64,000 bases of DNA from Anaerolineae bacterium (GCA_034435455.1 DAOTXL010000077.1:9344-73343), one strand, 5' to 3'; positions 17,147 to 58,185 are shown, counted from the stretch's first letter. Numbers and translations: made by a program. The notes: a model not told the origin generated them from the letters alone.

Positions 17147-17157
17147 GAAGTCGGAGG

Positions 17158-20196: not shown

Positions 20197-20204
20197 TAAC
20201 CCGT

Positions 20205-22343: not shown

Positions 22344-22379
22344 TCATCCCTTGGGAGTATTTGGGGGCTGATTTGCCGG

Positions 22380-26202: not shown

Positions 26203-27791
26203 CCAACCTTCCCAGTTTTTGGGCCCAGGTGCAACGCACCAGCAAGCCAGCCAACCAGCCGCTGCGCCTCGTCCAGCCGCAGCGCCAGCACGACCGCCCC
26301 GTAGACCGCCCCGGCGGCGGCCAAAGCCAGGCCCAGCACCGTCCCTTGGGCCAGCAGTCCGGCACCGGCCGGTCGTGGCTCCAACAGCCTGGCCACCAGC
26401 TGGCCGGCCAGCGCCGCCGCCAGCGCCCCGGCGACGATCTTGAACAGATCGCGTCCCAGGCAGCCCGGCTCCAGCCCTTCGATCCGGCGCAGCAACAGGC
26501 CCCAAACCAGCAAACAGGTGACCCACGCCGCCAGCGACGTGCCCAGTGTCAGGCCAGACACACCTAACGCTGGCCCCAGCAGAGCATCGAGGGCAGCGTT
26601 CAGGCCCAACCCGCCGGCCAGGATGATCACCGGCGGCCACACCTCGCGCCGGGCGAAAAGGGCATAGAGCGCCACGTACAGCAGCGCCCAGGCCACTAAG
26701 GCGGGCATCAGGCCGAGCAATGCCCCGGCCACGGCAGCTGTCTGCTCCGGGCCAAAGCGGCCTCGTTGCAGCACGGCGCGGATGATGTTTTCGCGCAGGG
26801 CCAGCGCCCCGGCAGCCAGCGGCAGCACGGTCATGGCCACTGTGGTCAGGACCGTCCGCAGTCGTGCGGCGAACTCTGCCCAACGGCCCAGCGCCGCCAG
26901 GTCGGACAACGCCGGAAAAGCGGCCGTCGCCGCCGACAGGGCGAAGGTGCTGACGATCAGCTTGTCGAAATCGGCAGCGTATTCCAGCACCGAAACGCTG
27001 CCGGCGGGCAGGTAGGAGGCGAACAAGCGATCAACCATGATGTTGACCTGCACGGTGACGACGGCCAGGGTCATGCCCAACAGCAGCTCGCCGCTGCGCC
27101 ACACGCCTGTCTCGCGTAGGTCAAGCACAGGTTGGTAGTGGGGCTGCACACCGCGCAGGGCGATGATCTGCACCGCCAGGGCCACCACCCCGCCCAGCAG
27201 CGTGCCCCAGGCCACAGCGTAGACCCCGATCCGCTGCTGCAGCAACAACACCGTGCTCAGCAGTGCCAGGCTGCCCAGGACGTAGGCCAGGTTGGGCAGG
27301 AAAAAACGCCGGAAGAAATAGAGCACGCTCTTGACCATGGCCGAGGCGCTGGCCAGACCGACTATCGGCAACTGCACAAGCAGCAGCGAAACGGCCAGGC
27401 GGTGGGTCTCGACGTCGAAACCGGGGGCCAGGGCGATGACAAGCGGCCCGGCGGCCAGCGCACCGGCGATCACAATGACCAGGGCGAGCAACACCGTAGC
27501 GTTGCCTAGCGAGCTGGCCACGTGCCAGGCTTGTGCCTCCTCGCCGCGTGCGTAATATTCGCTGAAGAGGGGCACAAAGACCAGGCTCAGCGAGCCGGCG
27601 GTCAGCATGTTAATGACCACATTAGGTACCGAGACTGACACCAGGTAGGCGTCCAGAGCACTGCTGGTGCCGAAAAGGTAGGCCAGCAGCGCCTGCTGGA
27701 ACACACCCAGCGCCTTGAGTGTCAGACTCAAAGCCAGCAGAATGGCTGTCGCGCCGTAAAAGTCAGCCCGGCCAAGCTTTTGGGCGCTCAT
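26199..27791 (-). CDS. murJ: MurJ/MviN-family (MOP) lipid-linked glycan flippase
   Basis: LAYLFGTSSALDAY, LAPGFD, QVNIMVDRLFASYLPAGSVSVLEYA, AAFPALS; ~14 TM helices. Confidence 0.82.
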   Translation of the reverse strand: MSAQKLGRADFYGATAILLALSLTLKALGVFQQALLAYLFGTSSALDAYLVSVSVPNVVINMLTAGSLSLVFVPLFSEYYARGEEAQAWHVASSLGNATVLLALVIVIAGALAAGPLVIALAPGFDVETHRLAVSLLLVQLPIVGLASASAMVKSVLYFFRRFFLPNLAYVLGSLALLSTVLLLQQRIGVYAVAWGTLLGGVVALAVQIIALRGVQPHYQPVLDLRETGVWRSGELLLGMTLAVVTVQVNIMVDRLFASYLPAGSVSVLEYAADFDKLIVSTFALSAATAAFPALSDLAALGRWAEFAARLRTVLTTVAMTVLPLAAGALALRENIIRAVLQRGRFGPEQTAAVAGALLGLMPALVAWALLYVALYALFARREVWPPVIILAGGLGLNAALDALLGPALGVSGLTLGTSLAAWVTCLLVWGLLLRRIEGLEPGCLGRDLFKIVAGALAAALAGQLVARLLEPRPAGAGLLAQGTVLGLALAAAGAVYGAVVLALRLDEAQRLVGWLAGALHLGPKTGKVG

Positions 27792-29818: not shown

Positions 29819-30942
29819 CCTTCTACTACCTCCTGATAAACGGTCAAGGTCTCCTGGGCCGTGCGTTCCCAGGAGAAGCGGGCGGCCTGGGCCAGGCCCC
29901 GTGCCCGCAGTTCCTCGGCCAGGCCCGGCTCGACGAGCAATTGCCGTATCGCCTCGGCCAGGGCGCCCGCGTCGGCAGGATCGTCCACCAGCAGCGCGGC
30001 GTCGCCCGTGGCCTCGGGGATAGCGCTGCAGTTGGTCGCCACTACCGGCGTGCCGCAGGCCATCGCCTCCAGCGGCACCAGCCCAAAGCCCTCGTGCAAT
30101 GAGGGATAGACCAGCAGGTCGGCGGCGCTGTAGAGCAGCGGCAGGTCGTCGGCCGGCAGGTAGCCAGTAAAGTGGACACAGCCCTCCAGGTCCAGCCTGG
30201 CGACCAGGGTTTCCAGCGCCGCCCGGTCGTCGCTGGTACGGAACGGCGGGCCGGTCAACACCAGATGATGGGGCAGCCCGACCTCGGCGCGCAGGCGGTG
30301 CAGAGCTTTGAGCGCCGCCGGCAGGTTCTTCTTGCGAGCGGTCAGGCCCACATACAACAGGAATCTGGCGGGCAGGCCATATTTGCTCCGGATCGCCGCC
30401 AACGCCGCCGGGTCCCGCCGGGGGAAAAAGCGCGGCTCCGGGGCCAGGTAGACGACGGTTACCTTCTCGCCAGGCACCCCCAGGCGGTCCATCAGATCCT
30501 GGCAGGTATTATACGAGATGGCGATGATTTTGTCAACGGTCTGCAAAAGGCGCGGCTGGACATTTCGCCAGTACCACACGTCCCAGGGCGGATAGAAGTG
30601 GGGCAGGGCCAGGATGGTCACGTCGAAGATGGTGATGACTGAGGGGCAGGGCGCGCTGAATACACCTAGCGCTCGCGCAAAGTGCACCAGGTCGGCCCCT
30701 TCCTGGCGCAGCAGGCGGGGCAGCCGGGCCTGGGCCCAGAGGCGCATCAGCATGCGGCGGCGGATGGGCACCACGGCCTGCCGAAAATTAGGGAACTCGT
30801 CCAATTCCGGCTGGCACTCCTCGACGACGACCAGGTATCGGTTCTTGGCGTCGAGCCGGCCCAGGGCGGTGAGGGTGGTAAGGGTAGCCGTCCGTGCCCC
30901 GCCGGGCCGGGCGATGCCCAAGGCATCCACTACAATTTTCAC
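29815..30942 (-). CDS. Glycosyltransferase family 4
   Basis: RKKNL, YPSLHEGFGLVPLEAMACGTPVV, FSWERTAQET. Confidence 0.92.
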   Translation of the reverse strand: MKIVVDALGIARPGGARTATLTTLTALGRLDAKNRYLVVVEECQPELDEFPNFRQAVVPIRRRMLMRLWAQARLPRLLRQEGADLVHFARALGVFSAPCPSVITIFDVTILALPHFYPPWDVWYWRNVQPRLLQTVDKIIAISYNTCQDLMDRLGVPGEKVTVVYLAPEPRFFPRRDPAALAAIRSKYGLPARFLLYVGLTARKKNLPAALKALHRLRAEVGLPHHLVLTGPPFRTSDDRAALETLVARLDLEGCVHFTGYLPADDLPLLYSAADLLVYPSLHEGFGLVPLEAMACGTPVVATNCSAIPEATGDAALLVDDPADAGALAEAIRQLLVEPGLAEELRARGLAQAARFSWERTAQETLTVYQEVVEG

Positions 30943-32072
30943 GATGGTGCCAATTCCTCCAGTACAGCGCGTACACGACGGCCTATGGCGGCGGGTGTAA
31001 AGTGCTGGCGGTAATGGGCCAGCCCGGCCGTGCCGAGCCGGATGCGCAACTCTGGGTTGGCTTTCAGAGCCCGCAGTGCAGCGGCGAGGGCCTCCGGGTC
31101 GGCGGCGGGACAGAGGTAGGCGGTCTCGCCGTGGCGAACCACCTCACGGTTGGCGGGGGTATCGGCGGTGAGCACCGGCAAGCCCAAGGCCAGTCCCTCG
31201 TAAACCTTGTTGGACACAGCGTGTTGCGCCTGGGGCGTTTTACCAAAGTTCCCCAGACACACATCGGCGGCATGCAAGTGATGCACCAACTCTTCCTTCT
31301 CCATCCAGCCCAGAAAGGTTACGTTGGGCAGGCTCAGGTCGACGGCGAGTTGTTGGGCCGCGGCCTTGCCCTCGCCCTCGCCGATGAATTCAAAGGCAAA
31401 TGCTGGATCATCGGTCAGCAGGGCAGCAGCGCGCAGGATATACTCGACGCCAGCGGTAGGGATGTATTTGCCGTGGTAGATGACGCGAAAGGGGCGCTCA
31501 GCGGGCCGTCTTGGGCCGCCGGGTTGGAAGAAGTGGTCGTCGGCGCCAATGGGTACCAGGGCAAAGTGACCCTCCGTCAGGCCATATAGCTCACAAAAAT
31601 AAGCGATGTGAGCCTGCGTGTCAAGCAACACCCGGTCAGCCAGGCGGCAGGCAGTGCGCTCCAGGGTGTAGACCAGCCGCGCCTTCAACGAGCCGGACCG
31701 GGCCAGCTTGCGTTCGTGGACGATGCTGTTGTAGACCGACAGGTAGGCATCCAACAGCAGGGGCCGCCGCGAGAAGCGGGTCAGTAGCCAGGCGGGATAG
31801 ATGTCGAGCAGGCCAGCATAACCAACAAGCACGGCGTCGTGAGGGCCAAGACAGGCATAATCGCGGGCCAGGGCCAGGTAGGTGCCCATCAGCCTGCCCA
31901 AGAAGCCGATTTGCTTCCAACCGCCGGCGGCCCTGGCGATCTTGTCGGCGGTGCCATGCCACAGCGTCCGGTGACACTCGACCACCTCGACGCCGTTCTG
32001 GCGCAGCCCTTCGATGATGATGCAATTCCGGGCATAGTCCCGGTCGTAGGTGCCGAAGTAACAAACTCGCAA
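30939..32072 (-). CDS. Glycosyltransferase family 4
   Basis: YHGKYIPTAGVEYIL, ADVCLGNFG, SNKVYEGLALGLPVLT. Confidence 0.88.
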   Translation of the reverse strand: MRVCYFGTYDRDYARNCIIIEGLRQNGVEVVECHRTLWHGTADKIARAAGGWKQIGFLGRLMGTYLALARDYACLGPHDAVLVGYAGLLDIYPAWLLTRFSRRPLLLDAYLSVYNSIVHERKLARSGSLKARLVYTLERTACRLADRVLLDTQAHIAYFCELYGLTEGHFALVPIGADDHFFQPGGPRRPAERPFRVIYHGKYIPTAGVEYILRAAALLTDDPAFAFEFIGEGEGKAAAQQLAVDLSLPNVTFLGWMEKEELVHHLHAADVCLGNFGKTPQAQHAVSNKVYEGLALGLPVLTADTPANREVVRHGETAYLCPAADPEALAAALRALKANPELRIRLGTAGLAHYRQHFTPAAIGRRVRAVLEELAPS

Positions 32073-32081: not shown

Positions 32082-33125
32082 TCAGTACTGTCGGTGGCAG
32101 CACCGTCCGCAATCGGAAAAGATGCCTTGGCGGGCCAGCTCGTTGCAAAAGTCACGGAAGCGGCGGTTGTTCCACACCTGGCGGAAAGAGCCGCTTTTGG
32201 TCTTGACATTATCCACTACAAAACCCCGGCAGGGGGTCACGTTGCCCAACATGTCCACCCGCACCACGTACCAGGGAAAGACGCATTTGCGGTTGAGCTC
32301 ATCCTCGCTGCCCTGGTAGTAGGTGCGCAGCTTTTTGTCGCTCATACGGGGATAGAAAGTAAGGGGCAGCCCGGCAGCTTGGGCCTGCTGTTTCAAGACG
32401 GGGATGTCGGCCAGAAGGCGATCCACATCCAAAGCCGCTTTGTCTTGGCGATTACAGTCGGAGAAGATCAGATGCTGAAAGCTCAGCGAATCCGCGCCAG
32501 CCGTCCGGGCGAGGGGGATCATCGCCGCCAGGTGGGGCAGGCTCTGCGGCGTGATGACGGTGTTAATAGTGATGGCTGGCTTATTCGCCCCCTGGGTCTG
32601 CCGGGCAGCGACCAGGGCCCGGATGCCGGCGACGGCCCGCGCGTGGGCGCCCGGCACACCGCGCATCTCATCATGGATCTGCGGCGGACCGTCAATGGAG
32701 ACGTGGATACGATCCAGGCCCAGGCGCACCAGCTCTGCGGCGTGACGCTCCAGCAGCAGGCCGTTGGTCGTCAGCGAGCAGTTGAACCCGCGCTCCTTGA
32801 TGTAGGCCAGCAGCGGCACGAAATCGTGGCGCAGCAACGGTTCACCGCCGATGAGGTGGATGAACGGCTTGACGCGAAAAGAGACAGCCAGGTCGTCTAG
32901 CACACCTTTGAGGTCATTGAGTGTCAACTCGGGCGTGCCGCCCTCCCGCTGCTCCACCTGGACGCACATGGCACAACGCATGTTGCAGCGGATGGTCAGG
33001 GCCAGGACGATACCCAGCGGGAAGGGACTCCATCCGCCCAGGCGCTGGATCAGGTTGGGAATGCCCAAGCTCTGGAGGTTTTCGATAGCTTTCAGGTTGA
33101 TTCTTTGCAGAAATCCAAGGGCCAA
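32082..33125 (-). CDS. Radical SAM enzyme with a SPASM/Twitch domain (BtrN-like)
   Basis: CNMRCAMC, GGEPLL, TTNG, VSIDG, C-terminal CVFPW...GNVTPC...CGRCC. Confidence 0.88.
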   Translation of the reverse strand: MALGFLQRINLKAIENLQSLGIPNLIQRLGGWSPFPLGIVLALTIRCNMRCAMCVQVEQREGGTPELTLNDLKGVLDDLAVSFRVKPFIHLIGGEPLLRHDFVPLLAYIKERGFNCSLTTNGLLLERHAAELVRLGLDRIHVSIDGPPQIHDEMRGVPGAHARAVAGIRALVAARQTQGANKPAITINTVITPQSLPHLAAMIPLARTAGADSLSFQHLIFSDCNRQDKAALDVDRLLADIPVLKQQAQAAGLPLTFYPRMSDKKLRTYYQGSEDELNRKCVFPWYVVRVDMLGNVTPCRGFVVDNVKTKSGSFRQVWNNRRFRDFCNELARQGIFSDCGRCCHRQY

Positions 33126-33152: not shown

Positions 33153-34043
33153 CTAGTCCACACGCCGGTGCTGGGTCACGATCAGGTCGGCCAGCAAGCC
33201 GTTCATAAAGACCATGAAGGCCAGGACCAGGATGATGACAGTGGACTCGCGGACGCGCGGGTAAAAAGCAATAAAGAGATCGTGGATCAGCTTGGCAAAG
33301 CCGAACAAAAAGATGACGACACTCATGGGCAAAAAGATTTTGAGCGGATTAAAATACATCACCGTCCGCACGACCTGGACCAGATAGTTGTAGGTGTCCT
33401 TCAGGGGGTGGAACTTGGATTGGCCGATGCGTGGATAATAGTCAATGGGCACAAAGACAACGGCGTAGCCATTGCTCATAAAGGTAAGGGTGATGGTGCT
33501 CACCCAGGAGTGGGTGGTGGGCAGGAGGTTCAGGTAACGCATGGCGATGTCCCGCCGAAAAGCACGGAACCCTGAATTGAGATCCGGGATGGACACACCG
33601 GTCAGATAGGAGGCCAGCCAGCGGATAAAAGCCTTGGTCGGCGTGCGCAGCCACCGGAGCGTGCCCGTCTCCCGCCGTCGGGCACCGATGACCATGTCAC
33701 AACCTTGCTCCTCCAACACCGCCACCAGGCGGGGCATCTCCTGATTGGGATAGGTGCCGTCGGCATCGGTCATGACGATCACCTCGCCACGGGCCGCTTT
33801 CAGGCCGGTGGTCCGCGCTGCCCCTGTCCCCCGGTTGACCGGATGCTGGATCAGCCGCACCCCCTCCCACCGACGCACGATCTCGGCGCTGCCGTCGGTG
33901 GAGCCATCATCTACGACAATGATCTCATAGGGCCGGCCGCTCTGCTCCATTGCCGCCGTGATCCGTTCCAACTCGGCACCGATGGCCTGCTCCTCGTTGT
34001 ACATCGGAATGACGATGCTGATCAAAGTGGTGGATTCGGTCAA
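33153..34043 (-). CDS. GT2 polyprenol-phosphate glycosyltransferase (DPM1/GtrB-like) with two C-terminal TM helices
   Basis: SIVIPMYNEE, VVDDGSTD, MTDADGTY, DLNSGFRAF. Confidence 0.9.
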   Translation of the reverse strand: MTESTTLISIVIPMYNEEQAIGAELERITAAMEQSGRPYEIIVVDDGSTDGSAEIVRRWEGVRLIQHPVNRGTGAARTTGLKAARGEVIVMTDADGTYPNQEMPRLVAVLEEQGCDMVIGARRRETGTLRWLRTPTKAFIRWLASYLTGVSIPDLNSGFRAFRRDIAMRYLNLLPTTHSWVSTITLTFMSNGYAVVFVPIDYYPRIGQSKFHPLKDTYNYLVQVVRTVMYFNPLKIFLPMSVVIFLFGFAKLIHDLFIAFYPRVRESTVIILVLAFMVFMNGLLADLIVTQHRRVD

Positions 34044-45962: not shown

Positions 45963-46730
45963 TCAGGAGGCTGTCGGTTTGCGCAAGAGGAATAGATCCT
46001 GGCTGGGATTTCCCCTGGCGCCTTCTGGAATGAAATCTACCACATTCCATCCCCGGGCCAGTTTCTCACGCACATATTGTTCAGGGTGAAATGCAGCGCA
46101 CATATTGGTCCCTGCGTATTCTTCACCGAGGATGACGAGGCGACCAAGCCGGAATTGCTCCTGCTCTTGGGGTGGCAGAATGTTGAGATAGTGTTCGCCG
46201 TGGACGGTGATCAGAAGGTAACCACCCGGCCTGAGTATCCTGAACAACTCGCCGATCCAAAAAAACTGCTGCTCTTCCGTCAGATGGGTAAAGACTGACA
46301 GGGCGTAAATAAAACCGAATTTGTTGTCCGCGTAATCCAGCCTACCACACAACTCATTTGTCTGAAAATGGGCAAAAGGCAGTTCGACCCGGCACCAGTT
46401 GATCAGCCTGAGGTTGTAGTCTGTGCCGTATAACTCGACCTCCTGTAACGATTTCCAATGGCGCATGATCCGCCCACAACCGCAACCAAAGTCGAGGATG
46501 GGGCTGACGTCGGCCAGGCTCAGGCCGTGCTTTTGCAGGATGTCGAGGATACTTTGAGCACCCCAGGCTCCCGCCTTCAGGAACCAGGAAACATCCTCCG
46601 AGCCGGCAGCCAGGAAGATCAATTCGGCCGGGGGGATGGGCAGATTGCCCTGCATCCGATTCCACGCCCGCAGGGCAAAATTCCGTACCTCGGATCGCGG
46701 CGACAATTTTCTCACTGTTTCACTCTCCAT
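45963..46730 (-). CDS. Class I SAM-dependent methyltransferase
   Basis: ILDFGCGCGR, YALSVFTHL, ILRPGG, QDLFLLRK. Confidence 0.9.
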   Translation of the reverse strand: MESETVRKLSPRSEVRNFALRAWNRMQGNLPIPPAELIFLAAGSEDVSWFLKAGAWGAQSILDILQKHGLSLADVSPILDFGCGCGRIMRHWKSLQEVELYGTDYNLRLINWCRVELPFAHFQTNELCGRLDYADNKFGFIYALSVFTHLTEEQQFFWIGELFRILRPGGYLLITVHGEHYLNILPPQEQEQFRLGRLVILGEEYAGTNMCAAFHPEQYVREKLARGWNVVDFIPEGARGNPSQDLFLLRKPTAS

Positions 46731-48169: not shown

Positions 48170-48943
48170 CTACAGATGGAACTTGCGCAGGGCCGTGTCC
48201 AGCTCCTCGGCCGTGCCGATGTCCAGGTACTGGCCATCGGCAAAATAGAGGCCATACACCGCCAGGCCCTGCCGCAGGGCCTCACCAAACACCTCCGACA
48301 GGACCACTTCGCGCTCCTCATGGGCAATCTGCGCCAAAAAGTCGTGCATCAGCCCGGTGAAGCGGCTGCCCCAGCAACAGATGCCCCAGGTGTTATACAG
48401 GTCGGTCTGACGGGGTTTGTCTATATTGTAGAGGACACGGCCCTCCTCATCCAGTTTGACCGGGCTGAATTTCCAGGGTGTGTCGGTGTCAAAGATGCCG
48501 AGCGTCAGGTCGGCCTGCCGGGCGCGGTGGTAAGCCACCAGCCGGACAAAGGCATCCCGTGGCTCGACGATGGTGTCGGGCATGCCAAAGATGACCGTCT
48601 CGCCCCGCAGCCAGGGATAGGCCAGGTCCAGGGCGAACGGCATCCCGCGCAGCACGTCCTGGTAGAGGTAGGCCACGTTGGTGCCAAAGCGCCGGCCCGC
48701 GCCGTAGTAGCGCATGATATCCTGCTTGTTCTCCCCCAGGACAATAAAGATCCGCCGCGCACCGGCGGTCACCATCTGCTCAAACAGATATTGGCTGATG
48801 ACCTTGGGACGGCGTTCCACCTTCCCTCTGACCTGGAAATCCTGATAGCCTACCGGGAACAGCTCTTTTGGGCAGGGGAAGGGGGCCAGCCGGGTGCCCT
48901 GGCCGGCGGCCGGGATGAGGCCCACAATGTCACTCATCTTCAC
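48170..48943 (-). CDS. Sugar-1-phosphate nucleotidyltransferase (RmlA-like)
   Basis: GLIPAAGQGTRL..PKEL, YLYQ..GMPFAL, FGMPDT, YLDIGT. Confidence 0.88.
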   Translation of the reverse strand: MKMSDIVGLIPAAGQGTRLAPFPCPKELFPVGYQDFQVRGKVERRPKVISQYLFEQMVTAGARRIFIVLGENKQDIMRYYGAGRRFGTNVAYLYQDVLRGMPFALDLAYPWLRGETVIFGMPDTIVEPRDAFVRLVAYHRARQADLTLGIFDTDTPWKFSPVKLDEEGRVLYNIDKPRQTDLYNTWGICCWGSRFTGLMHDFLAQIAHEEREVVLSEVFGEALRQGLAVYGLYFADGQYLDIGTAEELDTALRKFHL

Positions 48944-49065: not shown

Positions 49066-50373
49066 CTACAGCGCAAAGGGAATCTCCGGGTTGAACATCT
49101 CGCCAAACAATTCCCGGATGCCGAACAGTTCCATCAGCCTTTGCTGCGTCCACCGGTATTGCGGCGTATCGAAACAGACGTCGAAGCTCAGTGCCTGCAC
49201 GGTGGTAAAGATCTCCAGGTCGCTGCGGCGGCGGCGCGCCTGGATGGCGGCCCGCTTCTCCAGCATCGCGCTCCAATTCTCTATGGCGTCATTCATGGCT
49301 GCCAGGCAGGCCTGTTGCTGCCAGAAGGGGGGTTGCCGTGTCACCGCCGCCTCGGTCGGCAGAAACTGGCTGAGGGGCTGCCCCCGCCGCCGGGCCAGCT
49401 CTTCCCGGACCTTGCGCGCCAGCGCCGCCGGCCCGCCGGTGCGCAGGGTGCGCCATGCTTCGCCCAGGTAGTAGCGCGTGTCGTAGCGAACCGGCGGTGG
49501 GGCGGGTGTCTGCTCAGCTTCCGGGCCAAAGCGGCTGCGGTCCATCTCCAGGCCGGCCATCTCGCCCAGCAAATAGGCCCGTTTGAACTGCAACAGCAGC
49601 GCCAGCGGCAGCACCCGCTCCAGGTAGCGATCCTCGTAGTTCTTGAGGATCGTGTACAGGGCATTCCGCTCATAGAGGTAGTGCAGCCGGGCCTGAGGTT
49701 GTTGGGAAAAGGCGCCATAGTGGACATGGTAGCAGAGCGATTGGGGGGCCAGGATCACCTTATAGCCCAGGATCCACAGCCGCCAGCCCAGGTCAATGTC
49801 GTCAAAGTAGGCGACAAAATCCTCGTCAAAGCCGCCGATTTCCAGGAAAAGCTGCCTGTGAATGAGCATCGCCCCCCCAATCGGCCCCAGGATGTAGCGC
49901 ACCTGGTCATAGGCGGTCAGGTCAGGTTCGTGGTAACCGGCAGCCCGGCCGTGGCCCAGGAACGAGACCAGCAGCCCGGCGAAATCCAGGGCCTGCCCGT
50001 CCCAGGTCAGCACTTTGGAGGCTGCACAGGCGATGTCCGGTTCATCGCCCAATGCCTCCACCAGGGCAGTTAACCAGTGGGGTTCGACGCGCATGTCCTG
50101 GTTGAGAAAGGCCACAAATTCGCTGTCGCATTGGGCGGCTGCCCGGTTGTTGCCGCCGCAAAAGCCATAGTTGCGGTCCAGGCGGATGATGCGCACCTGG
50201 GGGAACCGTTCCTGCACATAGGCCACCGAGTCGTCAGTCGAGGCGTTGTCGGCCAGCACCAGCTCCAGGCGCTCTGCCGGGTAGTCGAGCCGGGAGAGGG
50301 AGGCGAAACAGTCCTCCATGTACTGCCGGCCATTGTAGTTCAACACAACGACACTGACGGTCGGATAATCCAT
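49066..50373 (-). CDS. Glycosyltransferase family 2 (WbbL/rhamnosyltransferase-like)
   Basis: SVVVLNYNG, DNASTDDS, NYGFCGGNN, FLNQD, GGFDEDFVAYFDDIDLGWR. Confidence 0.9.
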   Translation of the reverse strand: MDYPTVSVVVLNYNGRQYMEDCFASLSRLDYPAERLELVLADNASTDDSVAYVQERFPQVRIIRLDRNYGFCGGNNRAAAQCDSEFVAFLNQDMRVEPHWLTALVEALGDEPDIACAASKVLTWDGQALDFAGLLVSFLGHGRAAGYHEPDLTAYDQVRYILGPIGGAMLIHRQLFLEIGGFDEDFVAYFDDIDLGWRLWILGYKVILAPQSLCYHVHYGAFSQQPQARLHYLYERNALYTILKNYEDRYLERVLPLALLLQFKRAYLLGEMAGLEMDRSRFGPEAEQTPAPPPVRYDTRYYLGEAWRTLRTGGPAALARKVREELARRRGQPLSQFLPTEAAVTRQPPFWQQQACLAAMNDAIENWSAMLEKRAAIQARRRRSDLEIFTTVQALSFDVCFDTPQYRWTQQRLMELFGIRELFGEMFNPEIPFAL

Positions 50374-50374: not shown

Positions 50375-52000
50375 CTAGATTGCCAGCCTCCAGCGCAAGT
50401 ATCGCCCCACCTCGCTCACCATGGCCCTGACGCCCTGCCGGCTGAGGAGTTGCCAGGCTTTGGCCGGCAGTTTGTGGAGCGGAGTCGGCGGGGGCGGTTC
50501 CTGAAGTGCCCCTGGGCCGAGCACCAGGTCAATCTCGCGCTGCGGGTCCAGGCGCGGCTGCCGGCAGAAATCGAGCAAGGGCGCGATCGGTTCAAACGGT
50601 TCGGTGGGGGTCAGCACCATCCAGCCCTCATCGCCCATATCCAGGATGCCATCCACCGGCCCTGACCAGGGCCGGGCCGATCCACCGGCCGGTGGCGCGG
50701 CCAGCAGGATGGGGCGCGGCCAGTCTTTCAGAAATTCGCAACGGTCGAATGCTTCAGCCCCGGCGATGATCAGCTCGGCGGCCCGGCAAGCGGCGAGCAG
50801 CATCTCCTCGTCGTCTCCGTCCAGGGGGAGCCGGTGCACCTGGCCCACGGCCTCCAGGGCGCGGATCATGGCCTGGTGGCAGGGCGACTCTTCCGCCAGC
50901 AGGGCGATCCGCCGGCGGATGGGCAGCGGGGCAATCGCCGGGGAGTGGCCATACATCCCGCGCACGTTGTCCAGGGTCAGCGCCGGGGAACCGTCGTGCA
51001 GCATGGGGCCAGGGCCGGGCGGCTCCCAGGCGGGGAGCTGTCTCCTGCGGCGGGGCGGTCGGCCTGGCCATCTGTCGGTCCCTTCGGCCCGCGCAGGCCA
51101 CGGCCCCCAGGCCAGCGCCTGATGGGCGGCCAGGAAGCGGTATCCTCGCTGCCGTGCCCGGCAGCACCATTCTGCCCCAACCCGATCCAGGTCGTCGTCC
51201 CCGGTCGGCAGGCCCACCTGGAGCAGGGCTGCCCGCCGGAACAGCCCGGCGGCCAGGCTGACCGCCGGCACCGGCTGCCAGCGTTGCCCAAACTGTCCCA
51301 CGTCCAGATGGCCGGCGTAGGGGTTGTGGGGCCACAGGCCGATGCCAATAACAAGGGTCGGCCACAGTTGCCACATGACGCGCGGCGCCACCGCCCCAAT
51401 ACTGCCCCGCATGGTCAGCGTCCGGGCCAGCCCGTCCAGGCAACCGGATCCCAGGCGGAACCGGGAATCGAGCAGCAGGATGACCGGCGCCTCGGTGCGG
51501 TCCAATTCTTCCGCCAGGGCCGGTACCAGAGCGTCGGACCGGCACTGAATCAGGCGAACCGGCAGGTTGTCAGGCGGGAGGAAGGGAGTAGCCAGGACAG
51601 TAACCTGGGCCGGCGGCGTTTCCTCCTGCTGCCAGACCGAAGCCAGGCAGGCATCCAGGTCGGCCTGGGCATGTCGGTGGAGGATGATGGCAGCTACCGT
51701 GAGCCCAGAGGCCGGAGAAGATCGGCTGTCGGGCCGATCTACGGCCACGGGCGCTCCACCCGACAGCAGTCCGGCCCGCTGCAAGACGCCCAGGGTACAG
51801 GCGGCCAGGTAGGTCGAGATATGGGCCGCCTGGGCCACCTCTGCCACCGTTCGCCACCTGGCTGCCGACCAGGTGGCGGCGACTACCGGGTCGAGGGCAA
51901 TGCCGATCGGATCGCCTGGCAGGTGCAGTTTCAGCCAGCCGTCGGGCCGGGTGTTGGGGACCAGGCCATCTCGCTGCCGGTACAGGGCCAGATCGGGCAT
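50375..52000 (-). CDS. PqqD/RRE-like domain, degenerate GT2 and collapsed GT4-like remnant
   Basis: Likely start MPDLAL at 52000; the GT2 metal-binding motif is degenerate (LLLDSRF); paralogous to 52015..53541; PLLDFCRQPR mirrors the neighbouring GT4s. Confidence 0.65.
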   Translation of the reverse strand: MPDLALYRQRDGLVPNTRPDGWLKLHLPGDPIGIALDPVVAATWSAARWRTVAEVAQAAHISTYLAACTLGVLQRAGLLSGGAPVAVDRPDSRSSPASGLTVAAIILHRHAQADLDACLASVWQQEETPPAQVTVLATPFLPPDNLPVRLIQCRSDALVPALAEELDRTEAPVILLLDSRFRLGSGCLDGLARTLTMRGSIGAVAPRVMWQLWPTLVIGIGLWPHNPYAGHLDVGQFGQRWQPVPAVSLAAGLFRRAALLQVGLPTGDDDLDRVGAEWCCRARQRGYRFLAAHQALAWGPWPARAEGTDRWPGRPPRRRRQLPAWEPPGPGPMLHDGSPALTLDNVRGMYGHSPAIAPLPIRRRIALLAEESPCHQAMIRALEAVGQVHRLPLDGDDEEMLLAACRAAELIIAGAEAFDRCEFLKDWPRPILLAAPPAGGSARPWSGPVDGILDMGDEGWMVLTPTEPFEPIAPLLDFCRQPRLDPQREIDLVLGPGALQEPPPPTPLHKLPAKAWQLLSRQGVRAMVSEVGRYLRWRLAI

Positions 52001-52014
52001 GGTTTCACCGGCTC

Positions 52015-53541
52015 TTATCGGGGAGAAATGCGCCATAGGAAGTAGTTCCGTATTTCGGTTGCCAGTCCGCGCAGCCCCTTCTCGCAGAGGGTTTGCCACG
52101 CCCGCCGCCCCAGGTAGGAGAGCGAAGCCGGGGGAGGGCCGGCGTCAGGGGCCAGGTCCTCGGCGGTCGGGGGCGATTCTGGCCGGAAAGTTTCCAGATG
52201 GAGGTAGTGACCACGGATAAACAGCGCGGCGATGACCGGATACTGGCCGTACATGGCCGGCCGCGGCGCGTTTGCCGTCAGGGCCAGGGCCGCGTCGTCG
52301 GAAAAGGGAGGGCGGCGCAGCCGCCGGGTCCGCCACCGGGCAGCCGTGGCCCGGGGCAGGGCCCGCAGCCACCTGCCCCAACTCCGGCGAAAGGTGGTTG
52401 CTACCCCCGGCATCCCCTGCCGTCTGGCCCACAGATAACCGCCGAAATCGCGCTGCAGGTAGGACCACAAAAGACGGCTGGCCAGCCGGAAATCCAGGTT
52501 CTTCCAGGCAAACCATGGGCGGCTGTAGGTGACCAATCCCAGCTTGAAAGTAGAGGCCATGGTGCTGACGGTGGCGGTGAACTTGTGATAGACCACGGCC
52601 CGGGGGGCGGCGACCACATCGTAGCCACGCAGCCGGGCACGGAAGCACCAATCGGTGTCGGCAAAGTAGATGAAAAATTCGGGGTCCATACCGCCGATCT
52701 CCTGGACGACCGAGCGGCGCAACATCGCCGCGCCAAAACAGGCGGTGAAGACCTGGTCGGTGTCGTCGAACTGGCCGACATCCAGGTAGCCGATAAAGTT
52801 ATCGTGCGAGTTGCCATCGGGGTGAAGCGAGTTGCCCATTGAATTGAAAAAGTGGCGCATGTAGTAGAGCTTCATCTTGGGAGCCGCAGCGGCGATCCGC
52901 TCCGAGCGGAGCATCACCCGCACACACTCGGCCACACAGTCCGGTTCCATTTCGGTGTCCTCGTTCACCAGAAACAGAAATTCGCCCCGAGCCTGTTCCA
53001 TAGCCAGGTTGTTGGCTTCGGCAAAGCCCATAGGCCGAGGGGTGGTGAGGATCTTGACCTGGGGAAAGTGCTGCCGGGTGAACGCCGCCGAATCGTCGGT
53101 CGTCTGGTTGTCCACCAGGATGATCTCCAGGTTGGGATAGGTTTGGGCCAGCACCGAGGGCAGACAGGTCTCCAGGTGTACGCGGGCCTGGCGGCTGGCC
53201 AGGATGATGATGGACACGAGGGGAAAGGGCCACAAATCCGAGATATCGTTCGCCAGCCTGGGGGCCGGTGGAGGCAGGGGCAGAGAGGGGATGAGCACCC
53301 CGGCGCGGGCCAGGACTTTGGCGGTGCACTCGACAAAGGCGGCCGACAGGCCTGTCTCGGCCGTCAGGGTCGAGATCACCTCCGCAGTCGGGCGACCGTC
53401 AAACGCCGACCAGACGCGGTACACCGGTTCGTCGCAGGCCAGCCCCCAGCCGGCGGCGTCGCTCAGGATCCAGAAGGTGCCGTCGTTGTGGGGCCGGTAA
53501 TTGTCGTTCTGCGTATAGCAAGGGTCCAGGGGATCGGCCAT
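52015..53541 (-). CDS. GT2 glycosyltransferase with an N-terminal PqqD/RRE-like domain
   Basis: VDNQTTDDS, GFAEANN, FLVNED, YFADTDWCFR; the first ~85 aa show a 3-strand/3-helix pattern ending KVLARAGVL. Confidence 0.82.
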   Translation of the reverse strand: MADPLDPCYTQNDNYRPHNDGTFWILSDAAGWGLACDEPVYRVWSAFDGRPTAEVISTLTAETGLSAAFVECTAKVLARAGVLIPSLPLPPPAPRLANDISDLWPFPLVSIIILASRQARVHLETCLPSVLAQTYPNLEIILVDNQTTDDSAAFTRQHFPQVKILTTPRPMGFAEANNLAMEQARGEFLFLVNEDTEMEPDCVAECVRVMLRSERIAAAAPKMKLYYMRHFFNSMGNSLHPDGNSHDNFIGYLDVGQFDDTDQVFTACFGAAMLRRSVVQEIGGMDPEFFIYFADTDWCFRARLRGYDVVAAPRAVVYHKFTATVSTMASTFKLGLVTYSRPWFAWKNLDFRLASRLLWSYLQRDFGGYLWARRQGMPGVATTFRRSWGRWLRALPRATAARWRTRRLRRPPFSDDAALALTANAPRPAMYGQYPVIAALFIRGHYLHLETFRPESPPTAEDLAPDAGPPPASLSYLGRRAWQTLCEKGLRGLATEIRNYFLWRISPR

Positions 53542-53543: not shown

Positions 53544-55064
53544 TTACCTCAGGGGCGTTCCTTTCAGGATGTGGCGCAGGCCGTTCATCAGGCGCATTAC
53601 CCGCCCCTGCTCGATCTGCTGCAAAGTCTGCCGCAGCTGTTCTGTCTCTGCCTGCCAGGTCTGGGCTTCTGCCTGCCAGGCGTGGATTTCTGCCTGCAGG
53701 CGTTCTTTTTCCGTTTCCAGGGCGGCGACACGGCCCTCCCGGTCGCGCACCACACTAGCCAGGTAGGCCAGCCGCTCGTCGCGGGCAGCCAGGTCGCGGC
53801 GCAGGGCGTTGATGTGGCTGATGAGCTTCAAGGCCGGCAGCGTTTGCCGGCCGCTCCGGGCCCGTTGCCGGTCGGCGGCAGGGCGCGGCTCCCGACAGAA
53901 GGCCAGAAGCGGCTGCATCGTCACTTCCCAGCGCAACTGCGGGGTAATGGCGTCAAAGCGCGTCTGGAACCCGGCACGAGGGAGATCGGCGCCCTCCAGG
54001 ATGGCAGCGGCCACACCGTCCACATCTTCATAGTCCACCACCCAGCCCAGATGGTGCCGGGCGATCAGATCGGCCAACACGTCGCCACGGGTGACAATCG
54101 TCGGCAGGCCGGCCCACAGGTGGTCCAGCAGCCGGGTGCGGAAGGAAAAGTGGGTCTCCAGGTGGGCAAAGTGCAGGCTGACACCGGCGTCGGCCTCCAG
54201 CAGATAGTTTTGCCGCTCTTCGTAGGGCGTCCAGTCTTTGAAAAAGACGCTCTTCTCATACAGGCCCAGTTCCCGGCTCAGGGCCACCGCCTGCTCGGCC
54301 ATCGCCATCGGCTCTACCTCCGGGTTGGGATGGCGGATGCCAAGGAACACCAGCTTCACGTCGTCGCGCAGGGCCGAGACGCGGGCCATCGCCCGGATGA
54401 GGGTCAGGGGGTCGAACCAGTTATAGATCCCGCCGGCCCACAGGAGCACATGGTCGGTGGCGGCGATGCCGGGGTGCACCCCCTTGAGCACGGTGTGGAT
54501 GTGTTTTGGGGGGGTATCGGGCAGGCCAAAGGCCACCACGTCAATCAGCCGTCGCAGGGTCGGATCGTCGTCATAGGTCAGGGGGTTGATGCGGTCCAGG
54601 GCGTTGAGCCAGCCCAGCCAGTAGTCGCGCTGCCGCTCACTGGCGCACAGGAAAAAGTCGCCCCACAACAGCAGATCGGTGAGGGCATCGAGGATGTCAT
54701 CGTGACGGCAATGGCGTTCGGCCTCGGACCGGTCGGCCAGCAGCGGCAGGCTCTCCAGCAGAAACGGGTCATAGAGGTCCACGACCAGCGGAGCAGCCAC
54801 CGCCGACAGGAAGGGGAACCGCCACAGTGTGTAGGTGGACAGGATGATCACGTCACCGGCTGCCGCCAGTCCTTTGAGCTTTTCTGCATCGTACTGAACC
54901 AGATCAAAACCGTCGGGTGCCAGCGATGTGGGAAAGGGAGTGGCCAGCATCACAGTGGCCTGGCGGCTCAGGACACGGGCGAACTCCCAACAGCGGATGG
55001 CCGGGCCGGCCATGTTTTCGTCCACCACGTCGTGGGTGATGATCAGGATTTGGCGTTGGCTCAT
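53544..55064 (-). CDS. GT4-type glycosyltransferase with a C-terminal coiled coil
   Basis: Start MSQRQILII at 55064; AGPAIRCWE, WAGGIYNWFDPLT, ETHFSFRTRLLDHLWAGLP; ~75-aa heptad tail ending GRVMRLMNGLR. Confidence 0.85.
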   Translation of the reverse strand: MSQRQILIITHDVVDENMAGPAIRCWEFARVLSRQATVMLATPFPTSLAPDGFDLVQYDAEKLKGLAAAGDVIILSTYTLWRFPFLSAVAAPLVVDLYDPFLLESLPLLADRSEAERHCRHDDILDALTDLLLWGDFFLCASERQRDYWLGWLNALDRINPLTYDDDPTLRRLIDVVAFGLPDTPPKHIHTVLKGVHPGIAATDHVLLWAGGIYNWFDPLTLIRAMARVSALRDDVKLVFLGIRHPNPEVEPMAMAEQAVALSRELGLYEKSVFFKDWTPYEERQNYLLEADAGVSLHFAHLETHFSFRTRLLDHLWAGLPTIVTRGDVLADLIARHHLGWVVDYEDVDGVAAAILEGADLPRAGFQTRFDAITPQLRWEVTMQPLLAFCREPRPAADRQRARSGRQTLPALKLISHINALRRDLAARDERLAYLASVVRDREGRVAALETEKERLQAEIHAWQAEAQTWQAETEQLRQTLQQIEQGRVMRLMNGLRHILKGTPLR

Positions 55065-56560
55065 CTTTTCCCCCTTAACCGGCGGACGAGCCGCTGTGTG
55101 CCGGTCAGCAGGCGCATCCCCCGGCCGTTCAGAGCTGCCTGGAGTTGTGCTTCGCACTGCTGCCACCGGGCGGTCATATCGTCCAGCCGGGCCTGCAATT
55201 CATCCGCCCACTGGGCGGTCCGGGCGTGTTCGGCGGCCAGGGCGTCGCGCTGAACGGCGATGGCAGCCAGCTGACGCCTGGCATGGGCCAGATCAGAGGC
55301 CAGGTGGTCTTTCTCCGCCTGCTGCCAACGTTCGGCGAAGGTACTCGCCGCATCGCCGGCGCGCCACGGCCGGCGGCAATAGTGCAGCAGCGGCCCGGCC
55401 ACCCGCTCCCAGGTGAAGCGCTCCGCCACCCGGCGGAAGGCGGCCCGGCGAGAGGCGCGGGCATCCGGCTCGTCCAACAGGGCCTGAAGGGCGCTGGCCA
55501 GGGCCTCGGCATTGCCAGGCTCTACCAGGTATCCCAGGCCGTGGGCTGCCACCTGGTCGCCCAGCACGTCGCCGTGGGCGGCGACGATGGGCAGCCCGGC
55601 CCAAATGTAGTCGAGCAGCCGGGTGCGGAAGGCAAAGCGCGTCTCCAGATTGGCCGGATGGAACGACAACCCCACGTCGGCCTCCAGCAAACAGGCCCCC
55701 CAGCGCTCCGGCGGCTGCCACGGGGCGAAGAAAATGTGGCGGCCCAGCAGCCCCAGCCCGGCGGCCAGTTCCCTGACCCGGCCGACCATTGCCGGCTGAG
55801 GCCGGTCCGCCTGGAAGAAAACCAGCCGGGCAGTGGGCTGACGGGTTATCACCTGCTTCATGGCCTGCACCGGCGTCAACGGGTCCAGCCAGTCCCACAG
55901 CCCCCCTCCCCAGATGATGGTCCGGTCGCCGGGGGCGATGCCGGGCAGTACCCCCTTGAGCACCGGCCCGGCGGGCTGCGGTGGCTCGGCGGGCAGGCCA
56001 AAGGGCACCACGTCGATCAGCCGGCGCAGGTCGGTGCCATCGTAGGTGTCGGGGTTGATGCGGCCCAGCGCCGCCAGCGCCCCCAGCCAGTAATCGCGTT
56101 GCCGCTCGCTGGCGCACAGAAAAAAGTCGCCCAGCCGCAACTGCTCGGCGAGCAGCGCCTGGTACTCCCAGTACAGCCAGCGGCCCACCGCGCCGCCCCG
56201 GTCCATCTCCAACACCTCCAGAATGACCGGATCGTACAGATCGGCCACCAGGTAGTGTTGCCCGGCGACCAGCCGCCCGGCCAGGCGCGGCTGCTTCTGC
56301 AGGGCCGGCCCCTGGACGACGACGACCTGGTGGGTGGCCAGCAGGGCTTCTGGGTCGGCCTCGTCGCCCTTCTGGACGGCAAAAGCGGGGTGCGTGGGGC
56401 CGGGCCGGGCAGCTTCGGCCGGCTGATCGCCGTCGCCCGGCAGCAGCAGCGTGACCTGGTGCTCGGCGCTGAGCACGCGGGCCAGCTCCCAGTAGCGGAT
56501 GGCCGGGCCGGTTCGCTGCTGGCCGATGGGGACCGGTGCAACCAGCAACACCGAAGTCAT
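55061..56560 (-). CDS. GT4-type glycosyltransferase with a C-terminal coiled coil (paralogue of 53544..55064)
   Basis: Start MTSVLLVAP at 56560; GPAIRYWE, WGGGLWDWLDPLT, ETRFAFRTRLLDYIWAGLP; tail ending GRGMRLLTGTQR. Confidence 0.85.
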   Translation of the reverse strand: MTSVLLVAPVPIGQQRTGPAIRYWELARVLSAEHQVTLLLPGDGDQPAEAARPGPTHPAFAVQKGDEADPEALLATHQVVVVQGPALQKQPRLAGRLVAGQHYLVADLYDPVILEVLEMDRGGAVGRWLYWEYQALLAEQLRLGDFFLCASERQRDYWLGALAALGRINPDTYDGTDLRRLIDVVPFGLPAEPPQPAGPVLKGVLPGIAPGDRTIIWGGGLWDWLDPLTPVQAMKQVITRQPTARLVFFQADRPQPAMVGRVRELAAGLGLLGRHIFFAPWQPPERWGACLLEADVGLSFHPANLETRFAFRTRLLDYIWAGLPIVAAHGDVLGDQVAAHGLGYLVEPGNAEALASALQALLDEPDARASRRAAFRRVAERFTWERVAGPLLHYCRRPWRAGDAASTFAERWQQAEKDHLASDLAHARRQLAAIAVQRDALAAEHARTAQWADELQARLDDMTARWQQCEAQLQAALNGRGMRLLTGTQRLVRRLRGKR

Positions 56561-57885
56561 GCGCCGCCCGCCGCCGTTGGAGGAGGGGGGACAAAGCCGG
56601 TCGGCCCCGGCTGCCACACGGCCGGGATGAGCACACTGCCGTACTTTTCCCGCACCCCCCCGCCGGGTTGCACATGAAAGGTATAGGCCTGATGGTGATA
56701 GTCGTAAGGGTGTGACCCTTCATAGTCGTTCAGTGAGGCCGACAGGAGGTAGCTGCCCTCCAGAAGTGGCAGGCTTTCCACGATGTAGTCCAGATAACCT
56801 TCCCCTTCAATGGCCGCGATCTCCAGGCCGGAAAAGAGGGTGTTTGGACCGTTGATCTGAAAGCCGCTGACGTGGTACAGGGCCAACCCAAACTGAGGCC
56901 GTTCGATCCGCTCCCTGGCCAGAAAGTGGATGCGCACCACGAAGGGCCGACCAGTGTGGAAAATGCGTCGCTCCCGCCCTTGATCGTCCAGAAGTTGCAC
57001 GCGCACGATCTCGGCCTCCAGCGACCCCCAACGCCGAAATGCCCCGTTGCCGACCTCCGCCGGGCATTCGTCGGGCAGTCGGGCAGGGTGGAGCCAGTGT
57101 TTGCTCTCCCGTTGGGCGGTTTCGATCCGGAGCAGGTCCTGTTCCTCATCGGCCAGGGTGTGGGCCAAATACTGCTCCAACACCTGCTCCACCGGGCCGT
57201 CGGCCTGAACCTGGCCCTCCTCCAGCCAGAGGGCCCGGTCGCACAGGGTGCGCACCTGGTCCAGAGCATGGGTGACGAGGAGGATCGTCACCCCCTGCCG
57301 TTTCATCTGGCTGATCTTGTCCAGGCAGCGGCGTTGAAAAGCCTGGTCCCCCACCGCCAGCACCTCGTCCACCAGCAGGATTTCCGGGTCGGTGTGGATG
57401 GCAACGGAGAAGCCCAGCCGCACGTACATGCCGGAAGAGTAGTGCTTCACCGGTACGTCTATAAATCGCTCCAGTTCGGCAAAACCGATGATGTCGTCCA
57501 GGCAGCGGCGGATCTCGGCCCGGCTCAGGCCCAGGATCGAGCCGTTGAGGTAGATGTTCTCCCGCCCGCTCAGGTCGGGGTGGAAACCGGCCCCCAGCTC
57601 CAGGAGTGCGCCCACCCGGCCGCCCACGGTGATGGTGCCGGAAGAGGGCTCGATGATGCGGCACAGCAACTTGAGCAGGGTGCTCTTGCCCGCGCCGTTG
57701 GCCCCGATGATGCCGACCACCTGCCCCCGCCCGACCTCAAAGCTCACATCCCGCAGCGCCCAATACTCCTCCCTGGAGGTGTACTTGAGTTGAGCAAAAT
57801 GCAAGAACAGCTCCTGGAACGAGCGGGGCCGTTCGTGGTGGAGGATGAACTTTTTGGAAACATGGTCAAGGCCGATCACGGTCAT
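56557..57885 (-). CDS. wzt: Polysaccharide ABC exporter ATPase Wzt with a C-terminal carbohydrate-binding domain
   Basis: Start MTVIGLDHVSK at 57885; GANGAGKSTLL, LELGAGFHP, YSSGM, LLVDEVLAVGD; Wzt_C-like tail (GYLDYIVESLPLLEGSY). Confidence 0.9.
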   Translation of the reverse strand: MTVIGLDHVSKKFILHHERPRSFQELFLHFAQLKYTSREEYWALRDVSFEVGRGQVVGIIGANGAGKSTLLKLLCRIIEPSSGTITVGGRVGALLELGAGFHPDLSGRENIYLNGSILGLSRAEIRRCLDDIIGFAELERFIDVPVKHYSSGMYVRLGFSVAIHTDPEILLVDEVLAVGDQAFQRRCLDKISQMKRQGVTILLVTHALDQVRTLCDRALWLEEGQVQADGPVEQVLEQYLAHTLADEEQDLLRIETAQRESKHWLHPARLPDECPAEVGNGAFRRWGSLEAEIVRVQLLDDQGRERRIFHTGRPFVVRIHFLARERIERPQFGLALYHVSGFQINGPNTLFSGLEIAAIEGEGYLDYIVESLPLLEGSYLLSASLNDYEGSHPYDYHHQAYTFHVQPGGGVREKYGSVLIPAVWQPGPTGFVPPPPTAAGGA

Positions 57886-58185
57886 CGCTCTTTCCGCCCT
57901 CCTTGTGGCAACAGCCGCAGGCTGTGCGGGGACAGGGGAGCGGGGATACAGGGGCAGGCCGCGTCCCGACCAGGGCACCCCCTGCCCTCCAGAAAATAAG
58001 GTCGGCCTCAGACCGCCCGCTCCGGGAGCAAGATCGCTTTGTCCCCGGTGGCGGCGCCGGCCGCTCCCCTGAGGTTTTGACCGTACCCACCAGGGCGATC
58101 CCCCACCCGGCCCGTCGGCCCACGACGGGCAGGAAATGCCCGGTAGCCAGCCACCCACGAACGAATCTGGCTTTCACAACCGGCA

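Follow-up and report, generated by a model that had tools for sequence, protein, structure and literature searches.

PqqD/RRE-fold domains on a pair of glycosyltransferase-like proteins in a Wzt-type glycan locus of an Anaerolineae bacterium, and their possible role in docking

Assembly of O-polysaccharides and S-layer glycans by ABC transporter-dependent pathways is represented by the Escherichia coli O9a system, with WbdA/WbdD and Wzm/Wzt, and by the Geobacillus slg clusters. To our knowledge, no characterized system of the O9a or slg type has a glycosyltransferase (GT) bearing a domain of the fold formed by PqqD and by RREs, the recognition elements of RiPPs (peptides that are synthesized ribosomally and modified post-translationally). 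RRE domains are used to flag peptide natural-product clusters irrespective of class. Fusions of an RRE with a glycosyltransferase domain (PF00535) have been catalogued and are uncharacterized (PMC7470986, 2020; PMC12710340, 2025). Here, we analyzed two RRE-bearing proteins, named GT-A and GT-B, which are encoded side by side in a stretch of 64,000 nucleotides from an Anaerolineae bacterium (GCA_034435455.1, DAOTXL010000077.1:9344-73343; the window in the following). These two names denote the proteins; fold classes of glycosyltransferases are always written with the word fold.

52015..53541, minus strand: GT-A, RRE-GT2 (GT2, glycosyltransferase family 2), 508 aa
50375..52000, minus strand: GT-B, RRE-pseudoGT2, 541 aa, abutting GT-A

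With O9a and slg the locus has in common a Wzt with cap-binding C-terminal domain, a multi-GT polymerase, methyl and sulfate modifiers as likely terminators, a coiled-coil-bearing enzyme and predicted peripheral membrane helices; unlike these systems, it has two RRE-bearing paralogues, one of them a putative pseudo-enzyme. The RRE-GT fusions of the RRE-Finder papers show the same domain combination as GT-A and were presented as candidate new RiPP clusters, whereas the GT-A/GT-B family, unlike those fusions as described, is found in Wzt- or Wzx-type polysaccharide loci without a precursor. Since these fusions had been listed, the bare architecture is not new, and a first-pass annotation of the window, which had taken the two proteins for a candidate undescribed system, was not fully right in this respect. 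Nothing was found in the literature on RRE-GTs in Wzt-type loci, on paired active and dead paralogues, or on the C-terminal motif that accompanies the domain.

The first-pass annotation had assigned a PqqD/RRE-like domain with three strands followed by three helices to the N-terminus of both proteins, which was borne out for GT-A by the structure model and Foldseek and for GT-B by homology.

53272..53541, minus strand: N-terminal PqqD/RRE-fold domain of GT-A, aa 1-90 (AlphaFold2, Foldseek, profile matches)

An AlphaFold2 model of this domain, built on an alignment of 37 N-domains, reached a predicted local distance difference test score (pLDDT) of 95.1. It contains strands at 16-19, 24-27 and 33-36, helices at 38-46, 52-63 and 67-80, and an extra N-terminal strand (aa 8-11) ahead of the three-strand sheet. 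Solved RREs made up nearly all of the 37 top Foldseek matches of the model in the PDB and ranked above any regulator, which argues for the RRE branch and against a DNA-binding helix-turn-helix (HTH) domain. The top match was TbiB1 with its leader (E 6.9e-5; template modeling score (TM) 0.67/0.69); the others included the PbtF RRE, TigE, LynD, TruD, PqqD (5sxy), MibB and ThcOx as well as MccB, CteB, McbB, TbtB and SuiB. Also on the sequence level, a profile of the N-domain searched against 177,635 PDB sequences matched TbiB1 in register (E 0.017), so that TbiB1 (PDB 5V1V/5V1U) is both the best structural and the best single-domain sequence-profile match in the PDB. The same profile, run exhaustively against 1.84 billion representative proteins, matched P0149, a protein of 91 aa (E 2e-4). 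P0149 is a true PqqD, as shown by its matches to PF05402 (E 1.1e-17) and TIGR03859 (64.6 bits vs a cut-off of 46). The Pfam and NCBIfam models of PqqD, including PF05402, matched neither the isolated N-domains (E<=10) nor the whole proteins (E<=1) of GT-A or GT-B. From profiles and model together, the N-domain of GT-A is a true member of the PqqD/RRE fold and homologous to PqqD. Fold and order of secondary-structure elements are the same as in TbiB1 and PqqD (PDB 5SXY; PF05402). Unlike these, the domain of GT-A is part of a fusion in which a GT2 follows it, bears the extra strand and lies below the curated PqqD models, and neither GT-A nor GT-B is encoded together with a leader peptide, a lasso cyclase or protease, or genes for pyrroloquinoline quinone (PQQ). 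The strand following helix 3 (aa 83-85) was considered as a pseudo-ligand occupying the cleft; this was rejected in favor of a more probable pairing with strand 48-51, the arrangement of ordinary winged-helix domains.

About 52 full-length orthologues of GT-A were obtained from metagenomes, the named ones belonging to Anaerolineae or Chloroflexi metagenome-assembled genomes. In these, the first 90 residues are conserved to the same degree as the catalytic domain, with Y9, G33, D37, W44, V76, L77, R79, A80, G81 and L83 nearly invariant. The pattern W..(D)GR/WR.T.AEV...C...L.RAG.L, by which the first-pass annotation had recognized the domain, is present in both proteins and conserved across the orthologues. 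For the few relatives with a displayed source name, this name is no more specific than 'GT2 family glycosyltransferase'.

For GT-B, the open reading frame (ORF) spans 50375..52099, but the start codon is the ATG at 52000 and not the upstream GTG, because the sequences of its orthologues and of database cluster P0124 (541 aa, MPDLALYRQ...) begin there. This start agrees with the domain position given by the first-pass annotation (51761..52000).

51749..52000, minus strand: N-terminal PqqD/RRE-like domain of GT-B, aa 1-84 (GT-A hidden Markov model, hhalign, conservation in orthologues)

A hidden Markov model (HMM) built from GT-A orthologues only matched this region of GT-B across the full domain with 22.6 bits (per-sequence p ~4e-9), and a profile-profile comparison of the two N-domains by hhalign gave a probability of 99.5% and an E-value of 3e-23. 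By homology to GT-A, the N-domain of GT-B thus has the PqqD/RRE fold.

The two proteins differ in the part following the N-domain. The earlier description of 'two tandem GT2 proteins' was right for GT-A; GT-B proved to be a degenerate GT2-like protein without significant Pfam GT2 match.

52558..53223, minus strand: GT2 catalytic domain of GT-A, GT-A fold, aa 107-328 (PF00535, 80.8 bits, aa 109-328)
51101..51703, minus strand: degenerate GT2-like domain of GT-B, ~aa 100-300 (homology to GT-A, motif positions, orthologue alignment)

GT-A has the motifs VDNQTTDDS, N193-E-D195 as equivalent of DxD, and ADTDW (D295/D297); D144, N193/D195 and D295/D297 were invariant or nearly so in 54 sequences. 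Judged by these motifs, GT-A is a complete GT2 and the active member of the pair. Its full-length model, in which the position of the RRE is confident, reached a pLDDT of 88.9 and a predicted TM score (pTM) of 0.86. The nearest solved folds to its GT2 domain were polypeptide GalNAc-transferases (ppGalNAc-Ts; E ~1e-13), PmHS2 (heparosan synthase 2) and WrtF. The ppGalNAc-T matches were rejected as a sign of a peptide acceptor: with a TM of ~0.43 and listed among polysaccharide synthases, they reflect the generic GT-A fold. For GT-B, an alignment to GT-A covers aa 7-303 (27% identity, E ~2e-17), and there is no significant Pfam GT2 match. LLLDSR replaces N-E-D, GAEW, which is not conserved in orthologues, replaces DTDW, and a VDN.S.D motif is missing. 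Without the nucleotide- and metal-binding and catalytic acids, the GT2 part of GT-B is probably inactive. Orthologues of GT-B with 760-840 aa have an extra GT4-like (glycosyltransferase family 4) domain, which the window copy and some others do not have; this C-terminal domain is deleted in the window copy, which still has the last segment (PLLDFCRQPR...) and the tail. From the lost acids, the missing Pfam GT2 match and the missing GT4-like domain, GT-B of the window is most likely a non-catalytic partner.

GT-A and GT-B belong to a tight minus-strand operon encoding Wzt, GT4cc1, GT4cc2, GT-A, GT-B, GT-C and a sugar nucleotidyltransferase. In the core from Wzt to GT-C, stop and start codons overlap or are 1-14 nt apart, with the stop codon of GT4cc2 2 nt before the start of GT-A.

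56557..57885, minus strand: Wzt, ABC-transporter ATPase with C-terminal glycan-cap-binding domain (PF00005; PF14524 Wzt_C, 96 bits)
55061..56560, minus strand: GT4cc1, paralogous GT4-like coiled-coil protein (39% identity to GT4cc2)
53544..55064, minus strand: GT4cc2, GT4-like protein with C-terminal coiled coil (PF13692/PF00534 and coiled-coil matches)
49066..50373, minus strand: GT-C, canonical GT2 without RRE domain or motif (PF00535, 86.5 bits)
48170..48943, minus strand: sugar nucleotidyltransferase (from sequence and position; corresponds to the PF00483 nucleoside triphosphate (NTP)-transferase gene of loci L001, L014 and L015)

GT-C is of the same GT2 subfamily (31% identity with the GT2 domain of GT-A) and was matched by neither the N-domain nor the motif HMMs. 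GT4cc1 and GT4cc2 have C-terminal coiled coils of ~70 aa, and a cationic amphipathic helix closes either protein; in this, the tandem proteins resemble 'ruler' enzymes with coiled coils known from ABC-dependent O-antigen systems. Downstream of the nucleotidyltransferase follow a GT4, two methyltransferases, a sulfotransferase, further GT4s and a DUF6541 membrane protein. The assignment to an ABC-type glycan locus by the first-pass annotation was therefore correct, given the Wzt with Wzt_C domain, the GT4s, the methyltransferases and the sulfotransferase.

Searches with the N-domain (E<=1e-3) yielded a family of 38 clusters at 50% identity, in which nearly all matches form the N-terminus of GT2 or GT2-like proteins of 416-860 aa or of fragments thereof. 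This is a small GT2 family, mostly of Chloroflexota type, found only in polysaccharide loci among the relatives examined. The conserved core consists of Wzt, coiled-coil GT4, RRE-GT2, in part RRE-pseudoGT2, and GT2. The order coiled-coil GT4, RRE-GT2, GT2 is kept in all five orthologous loci, with GT4cc2 adjacent throughout; Wzt is located directly upstream in four of them (L001, L003, L004, L014), and GT-B is inserted in four and absent in L014. These loci continue with NTP-transferase, GT4, and methyltransferase or sulfotransferase genes. Polysaccharide loci also harbor four distant relatives with N-domain identities of 17-31%: a Wzx-type flippase is encoded in L005, a Wzt in L006, GTs and methyltransferases are encoded in L007, and the low-GC locus L017 (4822..12159) encodes Wzm, Wzt, a methyltransferase-GT2-GT4 protein of 998 aa, an RRE-GT2 of 443 aa and, directly after the latter, a WecA-like phosphoglycosyl transferase (PF00953). 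In P0058, the catalytic part of GT4cc2 is fused behind the RRE-GT2 module (48% identity, E 7e-118), and more distantly a fusion of this kind is also found in P0057 and the long GT-B forms. This provides a Rosetta-stone indication that GT4cc and RRE-GT2 act together. A scan of genome contigs with GT-A gave only unrelated GT2-domain matches (Bacteroidota and others). A scan of metagenomes gave 80 loci, where the N-domain was present only in L016 and L017; the rest were used as negative control for the motif described below.

The absence of an evident RiPP precursor noted by the first-pass annotation was confirmed: gaps in the core are <=14 nt, and no short ORF was conserved in the intergenic gaps of nine related loci. 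Beside the RRE protein, no RiPP-class enzyme, radical-SAM (S-adenosylmethionine) protein, protease or cyclodehydratase was found in ten loci; its neighbors are instead GTs, Wzt, NTP-transferase, methyltransferases and sulfotransferases. Two candidates within the window were rejected, namely the short ORF 45883..46050 as precursor, which overlaps the start of a methyltransferase gene and is not conserved, and a radical SAM/SPASM gene (32082..33125) as RRE-linked RiPP maturase, which lies at a distance of 17 kb and is missing from every orthologous locus. By the tests applied, the locus is not a RiPP cluster, as there is neither a precursor nor a class enzyme. For the RRE fold, the first-pass annotation had offered two uses. 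Aiming of glycosylation at proteins or peptides is unsupported, as all relatives found are located in lipid-linked polysaccharide loci, with that of L017 directly next to a WecA-like enzyme. Docking of enzymes into an assembly line would be compatible with the comparison of loci.

In addition to the N-domain, the family has a proline-rich motif near the C-terminus with the consensus PPxM/LxxGxPxL(T/A)xxx(I/V)RxxY, and both proteins end in an amphipathic helix.

52204..52266, minus strand: proline-rich C-terminal motif of GT-A, PRPAMYGQYPVIAALFIRGHY, aa 426-446, candidate RRE ligand
50951..51016, minus strand: proline-rich motif as present in GT-B, GPGPMLHDGSPALTLDNVRGMY, aa 329-350 (motif HMM and position)
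52018..52122, minus strand: C-terminal cationic amphipathic helix of GT-A, aa 474-508 (helix 474-505 in the model; moment 0.55, charge +5)
50378..50488, minus strand: C-terminal cationic amphipathic helix of GT-B, aa 505-541 (hydrophobic moment 0.57, net charge +6)

The motif was present in all RRE-bearing ORFs (19/19) of two locus sets, including the distant low-GC relative. The HMM detected 14 of these (13/17 in the first set, 1/2 in the second), and the remaining five, namely GT-B of L003, GT-B of L004, P0057 of L006, GT-A of L015 and the protein of L017, were identified by eye. No match of the motif HMM was obtained in 370 other stop-to-stop ORFs of the related loci, nor in ~2170 ORFs of 78 metagenomic loci with related GT2s lacking the N-domain. 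In the full-length model of GT-A, the motif forms a strand at 434-437 with a local pLDDT of ~90. The tail of GT-A is common to GT-B (39% identity over 38 aa, E 3e-6), and all GT-B orthologues keep the tail pattern PTPL..LP.KAW..L...G......E...Y.RW. Cationic amphipathic C-terminal helices on all four enzymes, i.e. GT-A, GT-B, GT4cc1 and GT4cc2, are consistent with a peripheral membrane complex.

As no RiPP-like pathway is located nearby, the domain has probably been re-used as a docking piece of the polysaccharide machinery. GT-A and GT-B would act on the cytoplasmic side of the membrane, in a pathway whose glycan is lipid-linked and leaves the cell via Wzt (ABC), as suggested by the cap-binding domain of Wzt, the likely capping enzymes, the amphipathic helices and the WecA-like initiator beside one member, and together with the adjacent coiled-coil GT4 proteins they may form one synthase complex. 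Within such a complex, the RRE would be a built-in peptide-docking module and not a reader of RiPP leaders; we hold the chances of this intra-complex, non-RiPP role to be about even. Both peptide binding by the N-domain and the identity of the bound peptide are inferences. The RRE is kept in the absence of GT-B (L014), with a fused GT4 (P0058, P0057, long GT-B forms) and together with a Wzx-type flippase (L005), and its persistence despite these changes leaves the protein itself or its paralogue as the only constant partner. The proline-rich motif is favored as ligand because it is the only other family-specific, extended and proline-containing element; we regard it as a tentative candidate, which may well turn out to be the wrong one. 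RREs bind proline-containing motifs such as [Y/W]xxPx[L/V/I/F/A] (PMC13381572), and an RRE binding a Pro-rich peptide is on record (PMC12710340). Binding in cis is conceivable as well as binding between the subunits of a GT-A/GT-B dimer or homodimer, with the motif as an added strand against beta3/alpha3, and its clamping might fix the architecture of the synthase or gate its active site. GT-B would then be a dead scaffold keeping only the interaction parts, i.e. RRE, proline-rich motif and amphipathic tail.

Several observations weigh against this docking role and its proposed ligand. Packing of the motif strand on the GT2-specific hairpins (aa 231-247) is equally conceivable. The joint occurrence of N-domain and motif is confounded by common descent, because all carriers are of one family, and the motif does not fit the lasso-type YxxP register. 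The conserved residues W44, D48-G49, T52, L77, G81 and L83 are generic determinants of the PqqD fold, so a functional cleft is not thereby shown. Also, a profile of the GT-B-type N-domain against PDB sequences gave only winged-helix regulators (PapI-like, ArsR) at insignificant E-values (0.09-0.8). The last result is also what speaks for a DNA-binding HTH domain and thus for an enzyme moonlighting as regulator, together with the structural relation of RREs to winged-helix regulators described in the literature. We consider this explanation highly improbable, since the regulator matches are not significant, the sheet of three strands is N-terminal, Foldseek ranks RREs above any regulator and the proteins have membrane-type amphipathic tails. 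That the conserved positions are fold determinants is, in turn, expected for a structural relic, i.e. a winged-helix/RRE-shaped packing or dimerization domain that no longer binds a peptide. Vestigial or inactive RREs are recognized in the literature for some RiPP enzymes, the non-RiPP methyltransferase Rv2067c is among the Foldseek matches, and the pTM of 0.86 suggests a domain packed on the enzyme. However, the whole domain is strongly conserved over a wide divergence and retained in the pseudo-enzyme GT-B, and it strictly co-occurs with the proline-rich motif; a relic therefore appears unlikely to us. About as unlikely is docking between different proteins, where the RRE would clamp a tail or loop of the GT4 coiled-coil protein, GT-C, Wzt or Wzm and thereby order the enzymes; this corresponds to the assembly line proposed by the first-pass annotation. 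The tight operon with overlapping or abutting genes, the Rosetta-stone fusion of GT4cc with RRE-GT2 and the coiled-coil GT4s, which suggest an ordered complex, agree with it. However, there is no universal partner, since the RRE is kept when GT4 is fused, GT-B is missing or the locus is of Wzx type; moreover, no conserved extended peptide was found in the partners, whose tails are helical and amphipathic, unlike the extended strands bound by RREs.

The remaining explanations retain the canonical function of the RRE fold. A substrate-targeting RRE would bind a separately encoded peptide or protein, such as an S-layer or envelope protein or an unlinked precursor, and present it to the GT2 for glycosylation. 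Besides the canonical function, the closest PDB folds of the GT2 domain (polypeptide GalNAc-transferases), the treatment of RRE-GT fusions as candidate RiPP enzymes in the literature, and the fact that ~40% of catalogued RREs are not beside known RiPP genes count in its favor. It is quite unlikely, because neither a conserved short ORF nor a protease or RiPP-class enzyme adjoins any of the ten loci, the distant radical SAM/SPASM gene is missing from the orthologous loci, the context is Wzt-dependent and lipid-linked with a WecA-like initiator beside one member, the low TM of the ppGalNAc-T matches points to the generic fold only, and the dead GT-B retains its RRE. Very unlikely in our view is a peptide-primed polysaccharide, for which the RRE would pick a ribosomal acceptor or primer encoded elsewhere, so that the glycan is started on or transferred to this peptide in the cytoplasm and exported via Wzt; such a leader-guided system would combine RiPP logic with assembly of the O-antigen type.

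Two further described systems are similar in part. MftF, the GT2 of mycofactocin biosynthesis (TIGR03965), is the top NCBIfam GT2 match for GT-C (113 bits) and the second for GT-A (50 bits); its model has ~73 N-terminal positions before the GT2 core, and the family member P0144 aligns from position 34. As the scores are far below the TIGR03965 cut-off of 280 bits, GT-A and GT-C are not MftF, and mycofactocin genes are absent. An active and an inactive glycosyltransferase also form the pair GtfA-GtfB, which serves the glycosylation of serine-rich-repeat adhesins in streptococci. By analogy, GT-B may be a dead paralogue beside an active enzyme that is kept for binding or scaffolding; GtfA-GtfB have the GT-B fold, unlike the two proteins analyzed here, which are of the GT-A fold class, and the likeness would be functional only. 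For genome mining, a bona fide RRE fold without precursor means that the GT-A/GT-B family, which the PF05402 model does not detect, is a source of false positives. With regard to glycobiology, the family points to an unrecognized protein-peptide docking element and a pseudo-glycosyltransferase partner in the little-studied envelope-glycan machinery of Chloroflexota, which could bear on the assembly or gating of multi-enzyme glycan polymerases. If the domain did target a peptide substrate, this would be a new glycosylation logic.

Further observations concern the remainder of the locus and the window. The ORF of Wzt (56557..58158) includes a long and implausible N-terminal extension, and the true start is probably M92 near 57885. 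No gene for Wzm, the ABC-2 permease, adjoins Wzt in the window or in four orthologous loci, and among the scanned ORFs of the window neither Wzm nor an initiating phosphoglycosyl transferase was found; several membrane-sized ORFs are without Pfam match. The sulfotransferase and the two methyltransferases are located together at 43537..46730 (minus strand) and probably cap the chain ends for recognition by the C-terminal domain of Wzt. In the product of 44656..45804, the final ~80 aa look out of frame, indicating a possible frameshift. The radical SAM/SPASM gene mentioned above (32082..33125, minus strand) is located between a GT2 and a GT1 gene (33153..34043 and 30939..32072) inside the glycan super-locus, and a B12-binding radical SAM protein is encoded at 24757..26883. 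Both are not conserved with the RRE-GT2 module; candidate roles are sugar modification or peptide maturation. Also within the glycan region, 26199..29818 (minus strand) encodes a MurJ-like flippase and an FG-GAP repeat protein of 676 aa, which suggests that the ABC-dependent glycan route is accompanied by a second one that uses a flippase. The GC content drops to 0.555-0.60 at 16001..22000 and 44001..46000, compared to ~0.65 elsewhere, and several ORFs of 330-500 aa at 17158..23517 are without Pfam match; these low-GC stretches and ORFs may represent laterally acquired or fast-evolving envelope genes. Finally, the region 748..16091 encodes functions of energy metabolism, i.e. heterodisulfide-reductase/Mvh-delta-like proteins, large FAD/FeS oxidoreductases, a 2-oxoacid:ferredoxin oxidoreductase and succinyl-CoA synthetase, which are unrelated to the RRE-bearing proteins.

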